Below, one piece after another: positions 17,238 to 39,035 of a DNA stretch of 64,000 nt. The stretch is taken from NCBI GenBank assembly GCA_965263035.1, contig OZ253580.1, positions 5,056,001-5,120,000 on the forward strand, read 5' to 3'. A program made the translations under genes and the position numbers. The notes under the pieces are model-generated. The model was not told where the DNA came from. It worked only from the letters and a program-made list of their open reading frames with translations, and did no database searches. The stretch is from Acidobacteriota bacterium (GTDB lineage: Bacteria; Acidobacteriota; UBA6911; RPQK01; JAJDTT01). Within the stretch, counting starts at the first letter, position 1. Every line of letters begins with the position of its first letter.

Positions 17238-17375
17238 AGCAGCGGCTCCAGGAGGCGCCTGCGCCGGTCTCGGGGGCTCCTCCTTGGGACACCGGATTGT
17301 ATCCAGCCGCAATCGGGGGGATCAAGCGGTCTCTTTGAACCGGACAACACGGCTTGTATAGTGGGCGGCGCCAAC

Positions 17376-20300
17376 ATGATCCCTCCCCTTGTACACACCT
17401 TCCATCTGGACGAAGGAGCCGCCTTTCGCTGGCGCTTCGCGGGGCTGGTCCTGGGGGGCCTGCTCCTGGTGGCCTACTGGCAGGAGTGGATCGTCTCCCC
17501 CTTTCCCTGGGACCTGGGCCTCATCCTGACCTTCCTCTACGGGTACAGCACCTTCCACCGAGCGTTCCAGGACGTGATCTCCCGGCGGATCAGCGCCGAG
17601 CAGGCGGTGACTCTGGCAGCCTTGGCCGCGCTCTACGTGGGCGAGTATCTGGCCGCCGCCGAGGTGGTTTACATCATGCTCGTGGGCGAGACCCTGGAGG
17701 CCTACGCCTCCAGGAGGTTCCACACCGATTTGACGCAGCTTCTCTCGATGCTGCCCCAGGAGGCCCACCGCTGGGGAGACGACGGCGAAGAACACGTGGC
17801 GCTGGGAGAACTCCGGCCGGAAGACCGGGTGGTGGTCTATCCGGGCGAGAGGGTCCCGGTGGACGGCGTGATCGTGGAAGGGGAATCGCTCCTGGACGAG
17901 AGTTCCATCACGGGAGAATCGGTGCCCCGGGAGCGGTCAATCCGCGACGAGGTCTACGCCGGGAGCGTGAACCAGACCGCCCGGCTCCTGATCCGGGCCC
18001 GCCATGTGGGCGAAACCACGGTGTTGAACCGGATCGTGGAACTGGTGCGCCAGGCCCGGGAGAGCAAGGCTCCCATTCAGCGGACTGCGGACCGCTACGC
18101 CCAATGGTTCCTGCCCCTGGTGCTGGGAATCGCGGTCCTCTGTTACGTGGTGACGGGTGACTGGATGCGCTCGGTGGCGATCCTGATCGTGGCCTGCCCC
18201 TGCGCCATGGTCCTGGCGACACCGGCGGCCGTGCTGGCCACCATCAGCGCCCTGGCCCGGAAGGGCATCGTCGTTAGGGGCGGGGTCCAGATCGAGGAGC
18301 TCTCCAAGATCGACTGCTTTGCCTTCGACAAGACTGGGACCCTCACCCGGGGCCGGCCCGAGCTGGTCCGGGTGATCCCCTTCGGAGAGTTTCGGCCCGA
18401 CGCGATCCTGGGTTGGGCGGCATCCCTTGAGTTCTTTTCCGAGCATCTCCTGGCCAAGGCCATCCGGGAAGCGGCGGAAACCCGGGGTCTCGACGTTTCT
18501 CCCGGGGAATCGGTCCAAAGGCACGCCGGTCTGGGTCTGGAGGGAACGCTGCCCTCCACCGGCGTTGAGGCGGGTCCGACCGTACTGGTGGGCAGCGCCC
18601 GGTTCCTAGAGCAGCGGGGAGTGACCCTCTCCAAGCCGGAGCAGGATGCCCTGGATCAGGCCGCGTCCGAGGGAGGCATCGCCGTCCTGGTGGGGTGGGA
18701 AGGGCAAGCCGCCGGAGTCCTCCTCCTGCGGGATCAACCCCGCGAGGAGGCGGGCCGGGCAGTGGCCGAGCTGCGTCAGCTGGGGATCCGGAAATCGCTG
18801 CTCTTGACGGGGGACAACGAGAAGGCGGCGCTGCGGGTGGCCCGGGAGGTGTCGATCGCCCAGGTCCACGCCGGCCTGCTCCCGGAGGAGAAGCTGGCCC
18901 ACCTGGAGGATCTCAAGCTCCAGGGCCTCCGCGTGGCGATGGTGGGAGACGGAGTCAACGACTCGCCGTCACTGGCCGCCGCCCATGTGGGCATCGCCAT
19001 GGGGGATACGGGGACCGACATCGCAGCCGAAGCGTCGGGCGTGGTGCTGGTCGGAGATGGCGGACTGGATCGCCTGAAGCCGTTGCTCCTAATGAGCCGC
19101 CGCGCCGTCAAGACCATCCACGACAACATCTTCTGGTTCGGTCTGGTCTTCAATCTGGCCGCGGTCATGGCCGCCTTCTGGGGGTACCTGAGCGCGGTGG
19201 GCGCCGCCGTGGTCCACCAGGGGTCCTCGTTCCTGGTCCTGATGAATTCCCTCAAGTTGCTGGACCGCCGGCCGTCGGAGTTTCTTCCCCACGGGCTTGG
19301 TCACCGGCTTCACCATCTCCAGCACCGGTTCCACCACCTTCAGCACGATCTTCAGCATCTTCAGCACGACTTCCTCCACTGGTTGGACCATCGGAATCCG
19401 GCCCATCTTTTCCATCATTTTCTCCACTGGGCGGGCCATCGCAAGATGTCCCTCCTGCGCTGGGCCGGGACCGCGGCCGCCTTGGCGTATCTGATCTCCG
19501 GAGTCCGGATGCTGGCCCCGGAGGAGGTGGGTGTGGTCCAGCGTCTGGGCCGGCTCCTCGAGGGGTCGTTGGACCCGGGCCTTCACTACGTGGCTCCTTG
19601 GCCCGTGGAGACCCTCCACCGGCTCCGGCCCGCGCAGGTCCGCACCGTGGAGCTGGGTTTCCGGATCTCCGACTCGGCGCCCGAGGCCGAAGTGGGGCCG
19701 GCCGCCTACGAGTGGAACATTCAACATCGCCAGGGGCGCTATCTGCGGAGGGAAGACGAGGCGCTCATGCTCACGGGAGATGAGTATCTGGTGGAGGTCA
19801 ATGCGGTAGTCCACTACTCCATCTCCGATTTCCACCAGTACCTCTTCGCCAGTTCGAACCTGGAGTCCACCTTGCAGTTCCTGTGCGAGAGCGCCTTGCG
19901 GCAGGTGGCTGCCACGATGGAGTTGGATCGGATTCTGGCCCTGGACCGGCGGACCATCGAGAGCGCGGCGATGGAGATGGTCCGAGCGGAGGCGGACCGC
20001 CTGGGCCTGGGGGTCCGAGTCCAGGCGTTCCACCTCCAGGACGTACATCCGGCGCTGGAGGTGGTGGGGGCGTTCCGGGACGTGGCCAGCGCCCTGGAGC
20101 AGAAGAGCCGTATGATCAACGAAGCGCATGCCTACGCCAACGAGCGGGTGCCCATTGCGGCGGGCGAAGCCCAGGGACGCCAGATCCAGGCCCGGTCCTA
20201 TGCGCTTTCCCGGGTCAGGCGCTCCGAGGGCGAGTCCCGCCGTTTCGATTTGCTCTACGGCGCCTACCGGCAGTCTCCGGAAACGACGCGCATCCGGATC

Positions 20301-20447
20301 TACCTGGAAGCCGTCGAAGCGGGCTTGGCGGGTAAGAAGAAATACATCCTGGACCAGAGTTCGGGACGACGGAAGATGCTCCTGTTTCGTAATTCGGTGT
20401 TCAATTTCGGAGACTTCGAGAAGGCGGTCGCCGGCCGCGGGCAATGA
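17376..20447 (+). CDS. P1B-type heavy-metal ATPase fused to a His-rich linker and a C-terminal HflK/SPFH domain (1023 aa)
   Basis: TGES, ACPC, FDKTGTLT, SEHLLA, TGDN, GDGVND, HQGSS; then 17 His in 50 aa, a TM helix, GVVQRLGR, PGLHYVAPWP, LMLTGDEYLVEV, QDVHP, AFRDV, TRIRIYLE. Single continuous frame. Confidence 0.9.
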   Translation: MIPPLVHTFHLDEGAAFRWRFAGLVLGGLLLVAYWQEWIVSPFPWDLGLILTFLYGYSTFHRAFQDVISRRISAEQAVTLAALAALYVGEYLAAAEVVYIMLVGETLEAYASRRFHTDLTQLLSMLPQEAHRWGDDGEEHVALGELRPEDRVVVYPGERVPVDGVIVEGESLLDESSITGESVPRERSIRDEVYAGSVNQTARLLIRARHVGETTVLNRIVELVRQARESKAPIQRTADRYAQWFLPLVLGIAVLCYVVTGDWMRSVAILIVACPCAMVLATPAAVLATISALARKGIVVRGGVQIEELSKIDCFAFDKTGTLTRGRPELVRVIPFGEFRPDAILGWAASLEFFSEHLLAKAIREAAETRGLDVSPGESVQRHAGLGLEGTLPSTGVEAGPTVLVGSARFLEQRGVTLSKPEQDALDQAASEGGIAVLVGWEGQAAGVLLLRDQPREEAGRAVAELRQLGIRKSLLLTGDNEKAALRVAREVSIAQVHAGLLPEEKLAHLEDLKLQGLRVAMVGDGVNDSPSLAAAHVGIAMGDTGTDIAAEASGVVLVGDGGLDRLKPLLLMSRRAVKTIHDNIFWFGLVFNLAAVMAAFWGYLSAVGAAVVHQGSSFLVLMNSLKLLDRRPSEFLPHGLGHRLHHLQHRFHHLQHDLQHLQHDFLHWLDHRNPAHLFHHFLHWAGHRKMSLLRWAGTAAALAYLISGVRMLAPEEVGVVQRLGRLLEGSLDPGLHYVAPWPVETLHRLRPAQVRTVELGFRISDSAPEAEVGPAAYEWNIQHRQGRYLRREDEALMLTGDEYLVEVNAVVHYSISDFHQYLFASSNLESTLQFLCESALRQVAATMELDRILALDRRTIESAAMEMVRAEADRLGLGVRVQAFHLQDVHPALEVVGAFRDVASALEQKSRMINEAHAYANERVPIAAGEAQGRQIQARSYALSRVRRSEGESRRFDLLYGAYRQSPETTRIRIYLEAVEAGLAGKKKYILDQSSGRRKMLLFRNSVFNFGDFEKAVAGRGQ

Positions 20448-20511
20448 TCCGGAGGCGCTGTCCGTGTTGGCGCCGCCCGGCGGCGGACGTCAATCGATGG
20501 AGAACAAGTAG

Positions 20512-21411
20512 ATGACCCGAACTCGGAAAATAATCCGGAACCGGTTCTTCTGGATCCTGATCATATTGATCCTGTCCTTTCGGAGCCTGTTCTTGGTGAA
20601 CGAACAGGAGATGGTCCTGGTCACCCAGTTCGGCCGGCCTGTCGCCCAATACAAGGATGCGGGGCCCCGCCTCAAATGGTTCTTCCAGGGGCTTACACGC
20701 ATCGACAAACGTCTCCACCTGTACAATCCGCGGCCCTCCGAATATCTGACCCGGGACAAGAAGAATCTCCTGGTGGAGACCTACGTGATCTGGCAGGTGG
20801 AGGATCCGCTCCAATATCTGCGGACCGTCGGAGATCGCTCCGGTGCCGAAATGCGCTTGCACGACATCGTGTGGTCGTCGGTCTCCGCCGATCTGGGCCG
20901 GACCGAGCTTTCCGAATTGGTGGCTACGGACCCGGACCAGGTTCGCCTGGAGCCCTTGATGGAGAAGCTCACACACGAGTGCGATGAGACCTCCCGCCAA
21001 CGTTATGGAATTCGGATCGCGTCCGTGGACGTGAAGCGGATCAATCTGCCCACCCAGAACCGAGAGAGCGTCTATGCCCGGATGCGGGCCGAGCGGGACC
21101 GCATCGCCAAGAAATATCGAGCCGAAGGGGAGGAGGAGGCCCGCAAGATCCGGGCCGAGGCGGACCGCCAAGCCGAGGAGCTGCTGTCGGCGGCCTACAA
21201 GCAGACGGAGATCATCCGGGGCGAGGCGGACGCCCAAGCCACCCGGATCTACGGAAGGGCCTATTCCCGGGACCCCGAGTTCTACCAGATGGTACGGACG
21301 CTGGAAGCATACCAACGAATCCTGGACGACAAGACCACCGCGGTCCTCTCAGCGGACTCCGAGTTGCTCAAGCTGCTGACCAAGGGGAGAAACGGAAAGT
21401 TTGCCCGGTGA
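20512..21411 (+). CDS. hflC: HflC-like SPFH protein
   Basis: VTQFGRP, YLTRDKKNLLV, DVKRINLP, VYARMRAERDRIAKKYRAEG, DPEFYQMVRTLEAY. Confidence 0.88.
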   Translation: MTRTRKIIRNRFFWILIILILSFRSLFLVNEQEMVLVTQFGRPVAQYKDAGPRLKWFFQGLTRIDKRLHLYNPRPSEYLTRDKKNLLVETYVIWQVEDPLQYLRTVGDRSGAEMRLHDIVWSSVSADLGRTELSELVATDPDQVRLEPLMEKLTHECDETSRQRYGIRIASVDVKRINLPTQNRESVYARMRAERDRIAKKYRAEGEEEARKIRAEADRQAEELLSAAYKQTEIIRGEADAQATRIYGRAYSRDPEFYQMVRTLEAYQRILDDKTTAVLSADSELLKLLTKGRNGKFAR

Positions 21412-22331
21412 ATAACTGGTTGCGAGAAAATGTCCTGCTGCTGCTGGCGGTGCTCATCGCCCTGTATCTGGCTTCCGGGATCTACTATGTCCCCGCAGAT
21501 CAGCAGGCGGTCACGGTGCGCCTGGGCCGGCTTATTCCGGAGCGGATCCAACCGGGTCTCCAGTATGCCTGGCCCTATCCGCTGGAGCAGGTGATCCTCT
21601 TGAAGACCAGCGAAGCCCAGCGACTCACCATCGGGGGCACCGATCTGGACCGGGCGTTGGGTGTACGGGCCCTGGTGGAGGACGACTCGCTTCTGAGCGG
21701 TGACCAGAACCTGGTCCACTTCCGCGCTTCCATTCAGTACTTCATCCAGGATGCGGGCCCCTATCTGTTCCGGTCTCGGAGTCTTTTCCGGGTTCTGGAA
21801 GCTCTTCTCTACCGGACCCTCTCCCGAGCCGTTTCCGTCCGGGGGGTCGACGACGTGCTCACCACAGGCCGGATCGAGATTCAGAATCGGGTCCGGGAAG
21901 ATCTGCAACGGGAGTCGGACCGGTTGGATTTAGGCGTGGCCGTGACTGGCGTGGCCCTGGAACAGGTCCTTCCACCCCAACAGGTTCGAGACGCGTTTCT
22001 GGAGGTGGCCAACGCCAGGGAGGACCGGAACCGGATCGTGCAGGAGGCGAGGGGCTACTCCAGCGAGCTGCTGCCCAGGACCCGGGGCCAGGCGCAGGAA
22101 AACCTCCAGCAGGCTCGCATCTATGGACGTGAAGTGGTGGACCGGGCCCAAGGCGAGTCCCAGCATTTCCTGAGCCTGTGGGGAGAGTACCGGCGCCATC
22201 CCACCGTCACCACGGTCCGGCTCTTTCTGGAGGCCATGGAGGAGATCCTCCCGCGCACCCGCAAGATCATTCTGGACGACGCGGGAAGCAAACAGGGTCT
22301 GGACCTGGATATCTTCGCCCTGGAGGAGTGA
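21408..22331 (+). CDS. hflK: HflK-like SPFH protein
   Basis: PGLQYAWPYP, LLSGDQNLV, VLPPQQVRDAFLEV, TRGQA, VTTVRLFLEAMEEIL; GTGA overlap with hflC. Confidence 0.85.
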   Translation: MNNWLRENVLLLLAVLIALYLASGIYYVPADQQAVTVRLGRLIPERIQPGLQYAWPYPLEQVILLKTSEAQRLTIGGTDLDRALGVRALVEDDSLLSGDQNLVHFRASIQYFIQDAGPYLFRSRSLFRVLEALLYRTLSRAVSVRGVDDVLTTGRIEIQNRVREDLQRESDRLDLGVAVTGVALEQVLPPQQVRDAFLEVANAREDRNRIVQEARGYSSELLPRTRGQAQENLQQARIYGREVVDRAQGESQHFLSLWGEYRRHPTVTTVRLFLEAMEEILPRTRKIILDDAGSKQGLDLDIFALEE

Positions 22332-22367
22332 CGGAAGCCGGCGAGGGGGAACTTCGGGTAAACGGAG

Positions 22368-22841
22368 ATGGAACCGAGAAAATGGGTCTCCCTGCTGGCG
22401 ATCCTGGGCTGCTTCCTCTATTTCGCCTCCCGCGATCCGCCCATCAGGGAAACAGGAAGGGAAGAGAGTCCCGACGACGTCCTGATCGCCATGGTCCAGG
22501 CCATGGAGCGCGGTGACGTGCAAGCGCTCCAGGAGTGCTTCGGGGGAGACTTGAGGCGGCGCCTCGAGAACCTGTTGGCGCGGGAATCAGGACCCCGGCT
22601 GGGCGAGTGGCTCCGGAGACGGGGAGCCGCAGTCAAGGGGCTCGCCATTCTGGACCAGGAGGAGCTGGGTCCGGATCAGGTCCGGGTCCTGACCGAGACG
22701 GTCTACAACGACCGCAACACCCGGCAGTCCTTCCGGTTGGAGCGGGAGAACGGATCCTGGAGGGTGACCCAGAGCGATTTCGAGATGGTCAGCGACTGGG
22801 AAAACGATTTTGGGAAGTCGATTCGCGATGTGGAGCGTTAG
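22368..22841 (+). CDS. Small membrane-anchored protein with a possible NTF2-like fold
   Basis: N-terminal hydrophobic helix, helical core, C-terminal FRLERENGSWRV strand motif; last gene of the operon. Confidence 0.6.
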   Translation: MEPRKWVSLLAILGCFLYFASRDPPIRETGREESPDDVLIAMVQAMERGDVQALQECFGGDLRRRLENLLARESGPRLGEWLRRRGAAVKGLAILDQEELGPDQVRVLTETVYNDRNTRQSFRLERENGSWRVTQSDFEMVSDWENDFGKSIRDVER

Positions 22842-23001
22842 TGACTCTGGAGAGTCAGCAGTGGGAGCATCTCGCGCCGCCGTCGGCTCAATAATGCGTG
22901 GTGTTGGAATCCATTCCGGATCGGCCACGATTGTCCTACCGTGGGGGACGCCTCGTGAGCCTTAGCGATGTGAACTCTTCGTACCTTGATTAGCGCTCGA
23001 C

Positions 23002-25455
23002 GTGCGAGATCTTCTCAAGAAACACTTCGGCTTTGACAATTTTCTGCCCCTCCAGGAGGAGATCGTCTCGAGTGTCCTGGATGGGCAGGACACGTTGGTG
23101 CTCATGCCGACGGGCGGGGGCAAGTCCCTCTGCTATCAGCTTCCCGCGTTGCGACTGGACGGGTTGACGTTGGTGATCTCGCCCTTGATCGCCCTCATGA
23201 AGGACCAGGTGGATGCCCTGAAGGCCAACGGCATCGCCGCGGGTTTCATCAACAGCGCCCTTACCCGGAGCGAGATCAGTCGGGTTGAGAAACAGGTCCG
23301 GCGAGGCTCCCTCAAGATCCTGTACGTCGCCCCCGAAAGATTGGCCCTACCTCAATTCAGGGACTTTTTGAAACCTCTGAGGATCGGCCTCGTAGCCGTG
23401 GACGAGGCCCACTGTATCTCCGAGTGGGGTCACGACTTCCGGCCGGATTACCGCCGCCTCGGCAACCTGCGTCGCGATCTGTCCGGAGTTCCCTTCATTG
23501 CCTTGACCGCCACTGCCACCAAACGGGTCCGCTGGGACATCGCGCAGCAGCTCGGACTGAAACAGCCTGCAAGATTCATTGCCAGCTTCAACCGCGCCAA
23601 CCTCAACTACGCGGTGCGGCCGAAACGAAATGCCTTCGACGGACTTGTGGAATTGCTGGAGAAATACGATGGGGAGTCCGCTATCGTGTACTGCTTCTCC
23701 CGCAAAGGGACTGAGGAAGTGGCGGCGAGTCTACGCGATGATGGTTTCAAGGCACAGCCCTACCATGCCGGGCTCGAGAGTCAAGTGCGGCGGGAGACGC
23801 AAGACAAGTTCATCAAGGATGAGGTGCCCATCATCGTGGCCACCATCGCCTTTGGCATGGGCATCGACAAGTCGAACATCCGTCTGGTGGTCCACTACGA
23901 CCTGCCCAAGTCCTTGGAGAGCTACTACCAGGAGACCGGCCGGGCTGGACGCGACGGTCTCTCCAGCGACTGCGTCCTCTTCTACACCTACGGCGACAAG
24001 GTGAAACAGGATTATTTCATCGACCAGATCGAAGACGAGATCGAACGGCGCCGATCGCGGGACAAGCTGGCAAAGGTAGTCGGGTTCTGCGAGTTGCAGA
24101 GTTGCCGCAGGAGCTACCTGCTGCGCTACTTCGGCGAAGCTTGGGAGCAGGAAGATTGCCAAGCCTGCGACGTCTGTCTCACGCCCCGGGAGGAGTTCGA
24201 TGCCACGGAGATCGCCCAGAAGATCCTGTCGGCGGTGGTGCGTACGGGCGAGCGGTTCGGTGCTGGCCACGTCATTCGGGTGCTACGGGGATCCGGAGCC
24301 AAACGGATCAAGGAACTGGGACACGACCGTCTCAGTGTCTACGGAATTGTTGACGATTTTCCCGAGGTCGAACTCATTGAGGTTTCCAGGCAGTTGGTGA
24401 CCAGGGGTCTTCTGTTCAACAACGGACGCGATTACCCGACGTTGGGGATCACGCCGGGCGGGTGGAAGTTCCTGAAAAAACGGGAAAAGCTGACCCTTTC
24501 CAGGCCCCAGAGCCAGGAGGACCGCACGGACTCCCCGGACCGGAGGACTCGGGAATACGACCGCACCCTCTTCGAGAAGCTACGCGGACTGCGCGGCCGG
24601 ATTGCCACCCGGCTGGGCGTGCCGCCCTATGTCGTATTCAGCGACGCGACGCTCCAGCAGATGGCGCAGTGGATTCCCCAGAGCCGCGAGACCCTGTCAC
24701 GCATTTCCGGCGTGGGCTCCGCGAAACTGGAACAGTTGGGCGGTGAGTTCCTCGAGGCCATTCGGTCTCACGCCCGTGAACACGGTCTGGAGGACCGCAC
24801 GCCTCCATCCCGAAATCGCGACGCGAGCGGCGGATCAAAGCGTGGAGACAAAAACGGAAAACCGGCCTACAGCGTCGATGAGATCCGTCAAGAACACGCC
24901 CGAGCCTATGAGAAGTGGTCTCCGGAAGAAGACGAGGAGCTGGTTCGGAAACATGGCACGGGAACGAATGTTTCGGATCTGGCCGAAGATTTCGGGAGAC
25001 GGCCCAGCGCGATCCGGTCCCGCTTGAAAAATCTCGGTCTCAGGAAGCCCGGCACCAAGGACCGAAGTCCCACCTACGATCAGACGGGGCGGCTGTTTCG
25101 CCAGGGACTGTCCATCGAGGAGGTGGCGCGGCGGCGCGGCCTGACGCAGGGCACGATCGTCAGCCACCTGGAGTTTCTGGCAACGGCCGGCGAGCAACTC
25201 GACCTGGACCGGCACCTGCCGCCGGCGGAGAGCACGGAGAAGATCGTTGCGGCCTTCCGGGAATTGAGCAACTTGTACACGGCCCTGAAACCGGTCAAGG
25301 AGATGGTTGGAGAGGATTGTTCCTACGAGGAAATAAGATTGGTGCGAATCTTCTTGCGGCAGCAAGGTTCATTGGCGGCCACTGACGAAGGGACGGGGCG
25401 CGAGGGGGCGGCGCTGGTTGATCCTGAATCGCGGGACGATCGCCCTGAACGGTGA
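23002..25455 (+). CDS. recQ: DNA helicase RecQ
   Basis: MPTGGGKSLCYQLP, DEAHCISEWGHDFRP, QETGRAGRDG, Zn-binding cysteines, RQC, HRDC, C-terminal HTH. Confidence 0.95.
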   Translation: MRDLLKKHFGFDNFLPLQEEIVSSVLDGQDTLVLMPTGGGKSLCYQLPALRLDGLTLVISPLIALMKDQVDALKANGIAAGFINSALTRSEISRVEKQVRRGSLKILYVAPERLALPQFRDFLKPLRIGLVAVDEAHCISEWGHDFRPDYRRLGNLRRDLSGVPFIALTATATKRVRWDIAQQLGLKQPARFIASFNRANLNYAVRPKRNAFDGLVELLEKYDGESAIVYCFSRKGTEEVAASLRDDGFKAQPYHAGLESQVRRETQDKFIKDEVPIIVATIAFGMGIDKSNIRLVVHYDLPKSLESYYQETGRAGRDGLSSDCVLFYTYGDKVKQDYFIDQIEDEIERRRSRDKLAKVVGFCELQSCRRSYLLRYFGEAWEQEDCQACDVCLTPREEFDATEIAQKILSAVVRTGERFGAGHVIRVLRGSGAKRIKELGHDRLSVYGIVDDFPEVELIEVSRQLVTRGLLFNNGRDYPTLGITPGGWKFLKKREKLTLSRPQSQEDRTDSPDRRTREYDRTLFEKLRGLRGRIATRLGVPPYVVFSDATLQQMAQWIPQSRETLSRISGVGSAKLEQLGGEFLEAIRSHAREHGLEDRTPPSRNRDASGGSKRGDKNGKPAYSVDEIRQEHARAYEKWSPEEDEELVRKHGTGTNVSDLAEDFGRRPSAIRSRLKNLGLRKPGTKDRSPTYDQTGRLFRQGLSIEEVARRRGLTQGTIVSHLEFLATAGEQLDLDRHLPPAESTEKIVAAFRELSNLYTALKPVKEMVGEDCSYEEIRLVRIFLRQQGSLAATDEGTGREGAALVDPESRDDRPER

Positions 25456-37098: not shown

Positions 37099-38109
37099 AT
37101 GGCTGATCAAATTTTCGAAATGCCCGAGTTTCGTCCTCCGCGGATCTCGTGGAGGCACGTCCGACTGGCCCTTCTGGTCATTTCGGTGGTGGTTCTGGCC
37201 TTTGGGACCGTCTATCAGGTGCAGCCGGAAGAAGTCGGAGTGGTCCTGTTTTTCGGGAAGCACGTTCGGACCACCCAGCCGGGACTTCGCTTCAAGCTCC
37301 CCTTTGTGGAAGACGTTCTGAAGGTCCCGGTGCAGCGCCAGCTCAAGCAGGAATTCGGGTTTCGGACCACCCAGCCGGAGATCCGGACCCGCTATGCATC
37401 CAAGCGTTTCCTTGATGAGTCGTTGATGCTCACCGGGGATCTGAACGTGGCGGTGGTGGAGTGGATCGTCCAGTACCGGATCACCGATCCATTCCTTTTT
37501 CTCTTCAGGGTCCGGAACGTTCAGGAGACGTTTCGTGACATGAACGAAGCGGTGATGCGCGAGGTGGTCGGGGATCGGACCGTCACCGAGGTCTTGACCG
37601 TTGGCCGCCAGGAAATCGAGGACATCGCGGAACAAAAGCTGCAGGAACTCTGCAGGCAGTATGAGACCGGCATCACGGTGGACCAGGTCGTGTTGCAGAA
37701 CGTGAACCCGCCCGATCCCGTCAAGCCGTCGTGGGACGAAGTGAACCAGGCTCAGCAACAGATGGACCGCCTCATCAACGAGGCTCGCGCCGAGTACAAC
37801 AAGGTGATCCCTCGGGCCAAGGGTGAAGCGGAACAGGCTGTCCTGCAGTCTCAGGGTTACGCACTCGAGCGCGTCAACGAGGCCAAGGGGGATGCCTCCC
37901 GCTTCAAGTCTTTGCACGATGCCTACCGCCGGGCGCCTGAGGTCACCAGGCGACGGATGTACCTGGAAACCATGCAGAAGATCCTGCCTCGTTCGGGCCG
38001 CAAACTATTTCTGGACGAGGATGCCGACGGCGTCATTCCGCTGCTGCCCATGGATTCTCTGGAGAAGATGATTTCGGGTCGTTCACAAGCGGAGGGATCG
38101 GGCCAATGA
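37099..38109 (+). CDS. hflK: HflK
   Basis: PGLRFKLPF, MLTGDLNVAVVEWIVQY, NVNPPDPV, YNKVIPRAKGEA, PEVTRRRMYLETM. Confidence 0.92.
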   Translation: MADQIFEMPEFRPPRISWRHVRLALLVISVVVLAFGTVYQVQPEEVGVVLFFGKHVRTTQPGLRFKLPFVEDVLKVPVQRQLKQEFGFRTTQPEIRTRYASKRFLDESLMLTGDLNVAVVEWIVQYRITDPFLFLFRVRNVQETFRDMNEAVMREVVGDRTVTEVLTVGRQEIEDIAEQKLQELCRQYETGITVDQVVLQNVNPPDPVKPSWDEVNQAQQQMDRLINEARAEYNKVIPRAKGEAEQAVLQSQGYALERVNEAKGDASRFKSLHDAYRRAPEVTRRRMYLETMQKILPRSGRKLFLDEDADGVIPLLPMDSLEKMISGRSQAEGSGQ

Positions 38110-39035
38110 AGCGCCGACATCTGTATCTACTCCTGGGTGCGGCCATCCTGGCCCTGGTGGTGGACGGCACCTACGTCACGAACGAAGCTGAGCAGGTCAT
38201 CATCACCCAGTTGGGTAGACCGGTCGGAGAGCCGGTCACCGATCCGGGTCTTCACCTGAAACTTCCCTTCATCCAGAAGGCCAACTATTTCGACAAGCGA
38301 TTCCTGGAGTGGGACGGCGACGCGGACCAGATGCCGACCAAGGACAAGCGATTCATCTGGGTGGACACCTACGCCAGGTGGCGCATCAGCGATCCTCTCC
38401 GGTTCCTGGAGAGGATGCGGGACGAACCCAGGGCCCAGTCCCGGCTGGACGATATTCTGGACGGCGAGACACGCAATGCCATCGCTCGCCACGAATTGGT
38501 GGAGGTGGTCCGAACCAGCAACCGGCAGCCCCAGGAACCCCAGGAGTCAGCCGAGGAGGAGACCTCGGTGCTCGCGAACATCGAGACCGGGCGCCAAGCA
38601 ATTACCCGGGCAATCCTGGAGACGGCCACTCCCAAGGTAGCCGACTTCGGGATCGAGCTCATCGATCTTCAGCTCAAGCGGATCAACTATGTGGAAGAGG
38701 TTCGGAAGGACGTCTTCGCCCGCATGATCGCCGAGCGCAACCGAATCGCGGAGCGCTACCGCTCGGAGGGTCAGGGCCAAGCCGCCCGGATCCGGGGCGA
38801 GCGGGAGAGGGAACTGCAGCGGATTCAGTCGGAAGCGTACAAGACCGCTCAGGAGACCCGAGGCAGGGCGGACGGAGAGGCCACTCAGATCTACGCCGAA
38901 GCGTACAACCGGGATGCCTCCTTTTACGCCTTCATGAAGAGCATGGAGACGTACGAGCGGGGCGTCGACTCCAAGACGATCTTGATCCTCACCACCAAGG
39001 GCGAGTTGCTCAGGCACATGCAACGTGCCCAATAG
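38106..39035 (+). CDS. hflC: HflC
   Basis: PGLHLKLPFIQ, PTKDKRFIWVD, KRINY, RMIAERNRIAERYRSEG. Confidence 0.92.
   Translation: MKRRHLYLLLGAAILALVVDGTYVTNEAEQVIITQLGRPVGEPVTDPGLHLKLPFIQKANYFDKRFLEWDGDADQMPTKDKRFIWVDTYARWRISDPLRFLERMRDEPRAQSRLDDILDGETRNAIARHELVEVVRTSNRQPQEPQESAEEETSVLANIETGRQAITRAILETATPKVADFGIELIDLQLKRINYVEEVRKDVFARMIAERNRIAERYRSEGQGQAARIRGERERELQRIQSEAYKTAQETRGRADGEATQIYAEAYNRDASFYAFMKSMETYERGVDSKTILILTTKGELLRHMQRAQ

Follow-up and report, generated by a model that had tools for sequence, protein, structure and literature searches.

Proteins carrying the SPFH domain, among them HflK and HflC, stomatin, prohibitin and flotillin, assemble into rings and cages across all domains of life, and in Escherichia coli HflK and HflC build a 12 + 12 cage around FtsH. 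What such a cage does to the membrane proteins that it encloses is still argued, partly because its clients are hard to define. Here we analyse an operon in a 64,000-nucleotide stretch of DNA from an Acidobacteriota bacterium (assembly GCA_965263035.1, contig OZ253580.1, positions 5,056,001 to 5,120,000; hereafter the window), in which an HflK-type subunit is encoded in one frame with a heavy-metal P1B-type ATPase, upstream of genes for an HflC, a second HflK and a small membrane-anchored protein.

Accessory proteins have been described for P1B ATPases elsewhere. In the mycobacterial PacL-Ctp 'effluxosomes', small membrane scaffold proteins encoded next to P1B ATPases gather the pumps into membrane platforms and stabilise them, for resistance to zinc and cadmium. 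In Pseudomonas aeruginosa, zinc studies list PA2435 (hmtA), PA2437 (HflC family), PA2438 (HflC) and PA2439 (HflK family) as raised under zinc depletion. HmtA overexpression is further reported to lead to higher cellular zinc and copper, and a review holds that the claim of import needs confirmation. A 2026 survey of nine P. aeruginosa SPFH proteins places PaFlo5, PaFlo6 and PaFlo7 in one operon and attributes mild phenotypes to the mutants; its main text contains none of the words 'ATPase', 'transporter', 'fusion' and 'fused'. An earlier note on this DNA, made from the letters alone, knew of no characterised system of the present kind, and this agrees with the literature searched, in which the unfused hmtA neighbourhood is noted in passing in zinc studies. 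Full-text searches found nothing on a P1B or cation diffusion facilitator (CDF) transporter fused to an SPFH or HflK protein, and a pump-SPFH fusion with a built-in client seems to be undescribed.

The fusion frame and its conservation

The fusion gene translates without a stop into a single protein (Table 1), and both Pfam and NCBIfam matches uphold its description in the earlier note as a P1B ATPase continuous with an HflK. Pfam identified the E1-E2_ATPase (residues 124-296, 173 bits) and Hydrolase (HAD; residues 312-537, 110 bits) domains, followed by a Band_7/SPFH match (residues 715-920, 59 bits), and no HMA domain was detected in the protein by Pfam at E<=0.01. The protein scored 540 bits against the NCBIfam model for heavy-metal P-type ATPases (TIGR01525, cut-off 346) and 183.5 bits against the HflK equivalog (TIGR01933, cut-off 159.4). 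The latter match covers residues 711-1001 and spans positions 2-256 of the 261 in the model, indicating that the fused HflK part is complete. The motifs listed in the earlier note for an ATPase lacking HMA (CPC, DKTGT, GDGVND and HQGSS) were all located at their reported positions. TGE (179-181), DKTGT (318-322) and GDGxND (524-529) show no variation among the 30 proteins aligned, nor does the CPx motif C274-P275-C276 ahead of the P domain, and all 30 fusion proteins likewise keep N593 and H614-Q615. Judged by these residues, the N-terminal part is a P1B ATPase with a full catalytic core and a CPx motif. One fusion protein, P0021, carries a run of DTNSG pentapeptide repeats at residues ~330-375, just past DKTGT, and its precomputed Pfam annotation includes PF01469.

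Among solved structures, the best match to the fused SPFH part was E. coli HflK (7vhp and related entries, 104.7 bits). Compared with that protein, the fused part holds an insertion of ~30 residues after a conserved GFR, which carries AAYEWNIQHR at 19701-19730 and, by alignment, has no equivalent in the operon's unfused HflK. The Y, E, W, Q, H and R of this insertion are invariant in 30 close relatives. As a universal feature the Y-x-W-[NE]-x-x-H insertion was rejected, the pattern occurring in 27 of the 58 ATPase-type representatives and in 14 of the 42 of CDF type (see below). The linker that joins the ATPase to the membrane anchor is made up of near-periodic His-containing repeats (HRLHHLQHRFHHLQHDLQHLQHDFLH...). 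Its histidines are as numerous in the closest aligned relative, P0002 (19, against 17 in the window protein), and fall to 8-9 in the next nearest aligned relatives, where the linker segment is shorter by 17 residues. With a range of 0-19 His across 30 members, the linker was rejected as a family-defining metal-binding domain, and a rough parse of CDF-type linkers gave a median of 0 His (17 of 38 parsed). On this alignment, the His-richness of the linker is a lineage-specific trait.

The fusion is not confined to this assembly. When proteins of 562-1791 residues were searched with the SPFH part, 146 matched, of which 120 were listed; Hydrolase and Band_7 co-occur in all 120 matches listed, 110 of which also contain E1-E2_ATPase, the other 10 being shorter pieces. 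The long fused frame was present in 20 of 401 sampled genomes from the phylum of the window (the window genome counted), and one further genome of the 401 has it split into overlapping frames of 749 and 373 residues; an unpublished genome, G152, contributes to none of these counts. A scan of species-representative genomes with a six-sequence alignment reaching from transmembrane helix 5 (TM5) to the C-terminus yielded 80 loci: in 68 of them the fused partner is an ATPase and in 9 a CDF transporter, and the other 3 are cut or frameshifted copies. An earlier locus scan with a whole-protein alignment had picked up generic P-type motifs, and thereby mostly unfused ATPases, and gave the fused loci L013 and L051. 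According to their record titles, the resulting 70 ATPase-fused loci include 49 from Acidobacteriota, five each from Planctomycetota, Verrucomicrobiota and Armatimonadota, and one each from Lentisphaerota, Abditibacteriota and 'Clostridia'. The last of these (L123, titled 'uncultured Clostridia') is a typical fusion operon with 40% identity, and its label is doubtful because its nearest relatives are all Acidobacteriota.

The order of the operon is conserved as well. For 61 ATPase-type loci the downstream sequence extends 2.2 kb or more; hflC and hflK both follow the fusion in 58 of them, and the unfused HflK, which we term 'blank', is kept in 60 of these loci and in all eight CDF-type loci. 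All 12 fetched Acidobacteriota loci hold the fusion, hflC, hflK and the small gene, with the small gene displaced in one and the fusion frameshifted in one, and the fusion, hflC and hflK also occur in the verrucomicrobial locus L012 and the planctomycete locus L051.

These data bear directly on the idea that a lost stop codon or a misassembly joined two genes in this assembly alone, an idea to which we give practically no credence. It could draw on L096 (6323-9449; also L124), a relative in which the gene consists of two overlapping frames, 749 and 373 residues long, with the remaining operon intact, a split that is due to a frameshift or a sequencing error. Against it stands the continuous frame in 68 of the 80 related loci, which represent at least five phyla. 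Furthermore, contigs from 4 of 4 public runs (three studies) bridge the junction at 19250-19500, where the earlier note had asked for read support, and no indels within 17376-20447 were reported in those contigs. The conserved frame and the junction-spanning contigs together refute the artefact.

The SPFH set and its exporter partners

The absence of ftsH from the window, remarked upon in the earlier note, was borne out at the genome level: the sole FtsH match above cut-off lies at C1:3552898-3554649, ~1.5 Mb from the operon. Omitted from that note was a separate hflK-hflC pair located 15 kb downstream of the fusion operon in the same window. Outside the operon, an extra hflK of 265-281 bits was also identified in four of five other fusion-bearing genomes tested. 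The better-scoring separate hflKC pair, together with the single distant ftsH, indicates that the SPFH trio of the operon is a dedicated paralogous set, and its distinctness from the housekeeping hflKC is supported by these sequence comparisons. The separate pair has its closest relatives, as far as the genomes sampled around G401 are concerned, in a second hflKC pair (46-54% identity) that occurs there besides an E. coli-type HflK.

When residues 701-1023 were searched exhaustively with HMMER in a set of 1.84 billion cluster representatives, 7137 matched at E<=1e-3 and 592 at E<=1e-30. The best 150 are the 50%-identity representatives nearest to the fused SPFH domain, and the region upstream of SPFH in them corresponds to a P1B ATPase in 58, a CDF transporter in 42, a segment of at most 110 residues in 49 (free HflK-like proteins or cut pieces) and HflK_N in one. 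Those relatives of the fused SPFH part that lay nearest and looked unfused (37-42% identity) were in fact proteins of 573-682 residues with a Cation_efflux (CDF) domain in place of the ATPase, and Pfam confirmed Cation_efflux in eight of eight CDF-labelled proteins tested. In all eight CDF-type loci with downstream room, the CDF::HflK gene is followed by hflC-like and hflK-like genes. A Band_7 scan of the order sampled around G401 revealed one further CDF fusion operon of this make-up (L192) and one locus resembling that of hmtA (L191).

CDF transporters are exporters, and their domains end in the cytoplasm. The CDF partners present H-x3-D in TM2 and TM5, which we take to be the zinc-type HD-HD site, and have one further helix ahead of the SPFH part, giving the same in-to-out geometry as in the ATPase fusion. 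Only ~55 residues separate the Pfam domain from the anchor, suggesting that the cytoplasmic C-terminal domain of CDF proteins is missing.

A FastTree phylogeny was built from 143 SPFH parts, after dropping the 7 of the 150 representatives whose SPFH match spans fewer than 250 residues. Its resolution is weak, with 61 of 140 forks open. The ATPase/CDF label needs at least four changes on the tree, and the unfused operon-type HflK proteins form a starred cluster of their own. As reconstructed, the tree shows no more than a pump-bearing HflK lineage separate from the operon partner HflK, and that exporter partners were swapped more than once. Fusion, operon order, paralogy and the existence of two exporter classes jointly argue for an SPFH set dedicated to metal export. 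The proposal in the earlier note that such a set serves a metal pump is thus reinforced as regards dedication, to which the tethering of CDF exporters adds; the cage and the stoichiometry that went with that proposal stay presumptive, as do the purposes offered there (microdomain, periplasmic chamber or coupling to proteolysis).

The topology of the fusion protein was deduced from homology and hydropathy. The ATPase aligns with Legionella CopA (LpCopA, 3rfu) over residues 91-628, and two extra hydrophobic segments precede residue 91, giving a pattern of eight transmembrane helices plus one anchor. By established structure, the C-terminus of an eight-helix P1B core is cytoplasmic, which places the 61-residue linker in the cytoplasm. 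The data fit an anchor helix (693-713) that would exit the membrane there and a periplasmic HflK body, as in HflK itself.

The transported metal was approached by comparison with pumps of solved structure. In phmmer searches, the ATPase scored 320 bits against the copper pump CopA, 297 against the cobalt pump sCoaT (7qbz) and 280 against ZntA (4umv), and it matched TIGR01512 with 454.7 bits (cut-off 313.5). P1B-1 (Cu+/Ag+) pumps use Tyr-Asn in TM5 and Met-x-x-Ser-Ser in TM6 as ligands. In the alignment with LpCopA, 'YN' corresponds to F592-N593 (TM5) and 'MALSS' to H614-Q615-G-S-S (TM6), and membership in the P1B-1 subgroup was rejected because FN and HQ.SS replace YN and M..SS. The TM5 and TM6 ligands of P1B-2 (Zn/Cd/Pb) and P1B-4 (Co/Fe) pumps are Lys and Asp, or SPC with HEGxT, and we assume that the TM6 HQxSS of the fusion resembles HEGxT; a short query covering TM5-TM6 found no match in the PDB. 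The CDF HD-HD site and the His that the ATPase has in TM6 where CopA has Met favour a Zn2+/Co2+ preference, and a borderline or hard divalent cation of this type is the most likely substrate.

Operon partners, transcription and neighbouring genes

The coordinates of the features described here are collected in Table 1. As the earlier note had it, the fusion is followed by hflC, a second hflK and a small anchored protein; both SPFH genes pass their NCBIfam cut-offs, and the start of the unfused hflK overlaps the hflC stop by 4 nt.

Table 1. Features of the fusion operon and of the separate hflKC pair (positions in the window)
Feature	Positions	Strand	Basis or remark
Fusion gene (P1B ATPase + linker + membrane anchor + HflK-type SPFH domain)	17376..20447	+	1023 aa, stop-free translation
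P1B-type ATPase part, residues 1-629, without N-terminal HMA	17376..19262	+	Pfam, NCBIfam, motifs
ATPase motifs	TGE 17910-17918; CPC 18195-18203; DKTGT 18327-18341; GDGVND 18945-18962	+	Coordinates checked
ATPase membrane motifs	TM5 FN 19149-19154; TM6 HQ (of HQGSS) 19215-19220	+	Coordinates checked
His-rich linker, residues 630-690, probably cytoplasmic	19263..19445	+	17 His in 61 residues
Hydrophobic anchor helix, residues 693-713, predicted cytoplasm to periplasm	19452..19514	+	Hydropathy peak 697-713; aligns with N-terminal anchor of HflK-type proteins
HflK-type SPFH domain + C-terminal helical region, residues 711-1001	19506..20378	+	TIGR01933
hflC paralogue, 299 aa, one N-terminal TM helix (12-30)	20512..21411	+	TIGR01932, 193.7 bits (cut-off 134.4)
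Second, unfused hflK paralogue, 307 aa, without the insertion	21408..22331	+	TIGR01933, 190.4 bits (cut-off 159.4)
Small membrane-anchored NTF2-like protein, 157 aa	22368..22841	+	AF2 model and Foldseek
Promoter-like site, TTGAAC-16 nt-TATAGT	17335..17362	+	Consensus pattern match only
Separate hflK, context outside operon, presumed housekeeping	37099..38109	+	TIGR01933, 280.7 bits, best of the genome; Band_7
hflC-like gene, partner of the separate hflK	38106..39035	+	Band_7

The small protein matched no Pfam or NCBIfam family above cut-off. Its AF2 model has a mean pLDDT of 73, with ten-residue blocks over residues 31-140 at 77-92, and Foldseek related it to NTF2/SnoaL-like proteins of varied or unknown function (SgcJ, 4ovm, E 2e-5). 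It has an N-terminal hydrophobic anchor. A lipoprotein was rejected, since the Cys that follows the hydrophobic stretch is not conserved, occurring in just 2 of 11 aligned orthologues (the window protein and that of the 87%-identical L092), and a metal binder was rejected as well, no His or Cys being conserved among the aligned orthologues. Complex prediction of the fused SPFH part and HflC with the small protein as partner gave a score of 0.00 and a mark of 0.32, speaking neither for nor against an association. A relative of the small gene was detected in 52 of the 61 ATPase-type loci and in none of the eight CDF-type loci.

A gap of 63 bp (window 17313-17375) separates the fusion gene from a divergent upstream gene. 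A scan for the promoter consensus identified two sites against 0.6 expected, both within this intergenic region, and the site in Table 1 ends 13 nt upstream of the ATG, so that the leader would be very short and the operon mRNA may be leaderless or nearly so. On the plus strand a single terminator-like match, where chance would give 3.9, falls within the second hflK, and the scan found no terminator-like sites in the intergenic gaps of the operon.

The window stretch is present in 20 runs from 10 studies, of which 4 are recorded as RNA. Two metatranscriptome libraries of one study cover the operon with single contigs of 5715 nt (17383-23096) and 5665 nt (17386-23048), which start 7-10 nt past the fusion ATG, end ~200-250 nt beyond the last stop and have depths of 29 and 27, against 6.6 and 10.7 for a separate upstream contig; a third RNA library, from another study, contributed a contig over 18842-20189. 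These data fit one short-leadered operon transcript but fall short of proving it, as contigs do not resolve the ends of transcripts and DNA may be present in RNA libraries. Among the RNA runs, two (X18 and X20) carry the label sponge metagenome, the former covering most of the operon at 95-99% likeness, which suggests that close relatives may live in sponges. No metal regulator was found among the neighbouring genes, the flanks encoding a GHL10-like protein, a protein without family match, a RecQ helicase and a sulfatase-like protein. The RecQ helicase downstream (window 23002-25455) has an extra C-terminal HTH_40 after HRDC.

Possible roles and comparison with known systems

The reading we favour, which we hold about evenly between acceptance and doubt, is that a dedicated SPFH assembly would scaffold an exporter of divalent metal, probably of the zinc type. 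Under this proposal, a CPC-type P1B exporter would be tethered through its cytoplasmic linker and an anchor helix to an HflK-type subunit, and this pump-bearing HflK would co-assemble in the periplasm with the HflC and the 'blank' HflK of the operon into a ring or cage like that of HflK/C. The unfused HflK would dilute or space the bulky pump-bearing subunits, their need for spacing being the simplest reason for its near-universal retention at ATPase-type and CDF-type loci alike. The assembly would thus confine a limited number of pumps in one ring-bounded patch of membrane separate from the housekeeping HflKC-FtsH, where they might be stabilised, clustered or insulated, while a divalent metal of the Zn2+/Co2+ type would be exported from the cytoplasm. 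In this proposal we infer the co-assembly into a cage and its stoichiometry, and likewise which metal is moved, in which direction and to what end.

Several points weigh against it. The three-protein SPFH assembly and its closed cage are extrapolated from sequence relationships. The metal, too, is deduced, for the scores against the solved copper, cobalt and zinc pumps are nearly equal, and the ATPase passes the NCBIfam subfamily cut-offs of the Cd type and, narrowly, of the Cu type. The variable His content of the linker and the patchy occurrence of the insertion make both features non-universal, and hence neither can define the mechanism. The contigs from RNA libraries can contain DNA, and their depth is given without a silent control stretch. 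In P. aeruginosa, the hmtA ATPase is reported to be an importer, and the genes of the locus rise in zinc starvation, a poor fit with simple detoxifying efflux, and the triple SPFH mutant shows mild phenotypes only.

An unlikely alternative is that a closed SPFH cage above the pumps acts as a periplasmic vault, which would buffer or sequester the metal or hand it to exported apo-proteins as a metallation compartment. Such a role would suit two unrelated exporters, both releasing metal into the periplasm, that bear the same SPFH module, as well as the periplasmic insertion, whose Tyr, Glu, Trp and His are invariant in close relatives and which the unfused HflK lacks, and the anchored, putatively periplasmic NTF2-like protein of most ATPase-type loci; the induction of the hmtA/SPFH neighbourhood by zinc starvation in P. 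aeruginosa would also be easier to explain by delivery than by detoxification. Yet roughly every second member of the wider set lacks the insertion motif, the small protein conserves neither His nor Cys and does not occur at CDF-type loci, the operon holds no candidate client protein, and the SPFH cage would need to be ion-tight. The fullest version of this idea, an extracytoplasmic compartment in which a pump-fed closed chamber would keep metal, probably zinc, at high local activity, to load exported proteins or as a store shielded from competing metals and chelators, strikes us as decidedly improbable; if true, it would represent a bacterial solution for loading proteins with metal outside the cytoplasm.

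It is also conceivable, and in our judgement unlikely, that the tether serves proteolytic control, the HflK part bringing the pump into the FtsH cage or keeping it out, for fast removal or sparing as the metal supply shifts. FtsH degrades the P-type ATPase MgtA in Salmonella, the genome encodes an FtsH, both HflK copies and the HflC of the operon pass curated equivalog cut-offs, and E. coli HflK, solved in complexes with FtsH, is the nearest relative of known structure. Nevertheless, ftsH is single and distant, the better-scoring separate hflKC pair can serve it, the permanent tethering of a substrate would be wasteful, and the same module on CDF exporters points to a shared role in metal export instead of the turnover of one substrate. 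Metal uptake, with an importer like HmtA working under zinc or copper scarcity and the SPFH set as its accessory, has very little chance of being correct. It would accord with the effect of HmtA overexpression on cellular zinc and copper and with the rise of hmtA and PA2437-PA2439 in zinc depletion, both as reported, and an unfused locus with a CPC, TM6-His ATPase does exist (L191). The relatedness of that locus is distant, however, the closer SPFH relatives are fused to CDF transporters, which are textbook exporters, and the import claim is the very one for which the review wants confirmation.

L191 is one of three loci with an unfused arrangement, together with the PVC loci L021 and L023; it comes from a genome of the order sampled around G401. 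Each of them encodes, in this order, a long SPFH protein (630-697 aa), an HflC-like protein, an HflK-like protein and a separate P1B ATPase (628-688 aa), with a TM4 motif that reads CPC in L021 and L191 and SCPC in L023, and with the TM6 His in all three. In L191 (6907-12910), the SPFH protein has 697 residues, of which the N-terminal ~370 are without assignment, and the 628-residue CPC ATPase reads 'LHNLST' in TM6. The long SPFH proteins of L021 (3935-5827) and L023 (3798-5852) likewise have ~300 N-terminal residues without a Pfam match. Compared with the window proteins, the L191 ATPase is 37% identical and the SPFH proteins 24-30%. Other searches directed at the hmtA locus were negative: in eight genomes from the order sampled around G401, the second HflK matches proved to be ordinary hflKC pairs without an ATPase in the vicinity, an ATPase search in five large genomes gave nothing distinctive, and among the 120 matches listed for the unfused verrucomicrobial ATPase none was named Pseudomonas where a source name was given.

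Should a dedicated SPFH assembly indeed scaffold these exporters, evolution would have fixed a client to its scaffold for two unrelated metal exporters and in several phyla, and structural and functional studies would gain a defined particle of client plus cage that can be purified. The fusion would also point to an unrecognised layer of bacterial metal homeostasis, in the form of organised efflux platforms or chambers, and may explain why three SPFH genes lie beside hmtA in the zinc-starvation response of P. aeruginosa.

Set against the systems known so far, the operon shares with E. coli HflK/HflC in complex with FtsH (7vhp, 7wi3, 9cz1, 9cz2) the passing of the HflK and HflC cut-offs, the single N-terminal anchor and a predicted periplasmic SPFH body, and it differs in having three SPFH genes instead of two, an eight-helix metal pump on the cytoplasmic N-terminus of one HflK, the ~30-residue insertion, an unlinked ftsH and a separate hflKC pair in the same genome. 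With CopA, ZntA and sCoaT the fusion has in common TGE, CPC, DKTGT and GDGxND, at 280-320 bits; unlike them, it has no HMA domain, carries FN in TM5 and HQ.SS in TM6, and is equidistant from the three solved subgroups, and none of the solved chains matched carries anything like its C-terminal SPFH fusion. The PacL effluxosome shares with the window the idea of a scaffold dedicated to metal pumps, whereas PacL proteins are non-SPFH, unfused and on the cytoplasmic side; a PacL-type scaffold was rejected for the operon, whose accessories are SPFH and NTF2-like proteins, with no other family matched. The P. aeruginosa hmtA locus (PA2435 and PA2437-PA2439; PaFlo5/6/7) is unfused, has its ATPase last in the operon and is reported to import. 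L191 reproduces the gene order reported there, and its likeness to hmtA lies in that order and in this literature. Like the window operon, the hmtA locus sets a P1B ATPase beside three SPFH genes and is zinc-responsive, and we regard it as a distant analogue of the operon described here.

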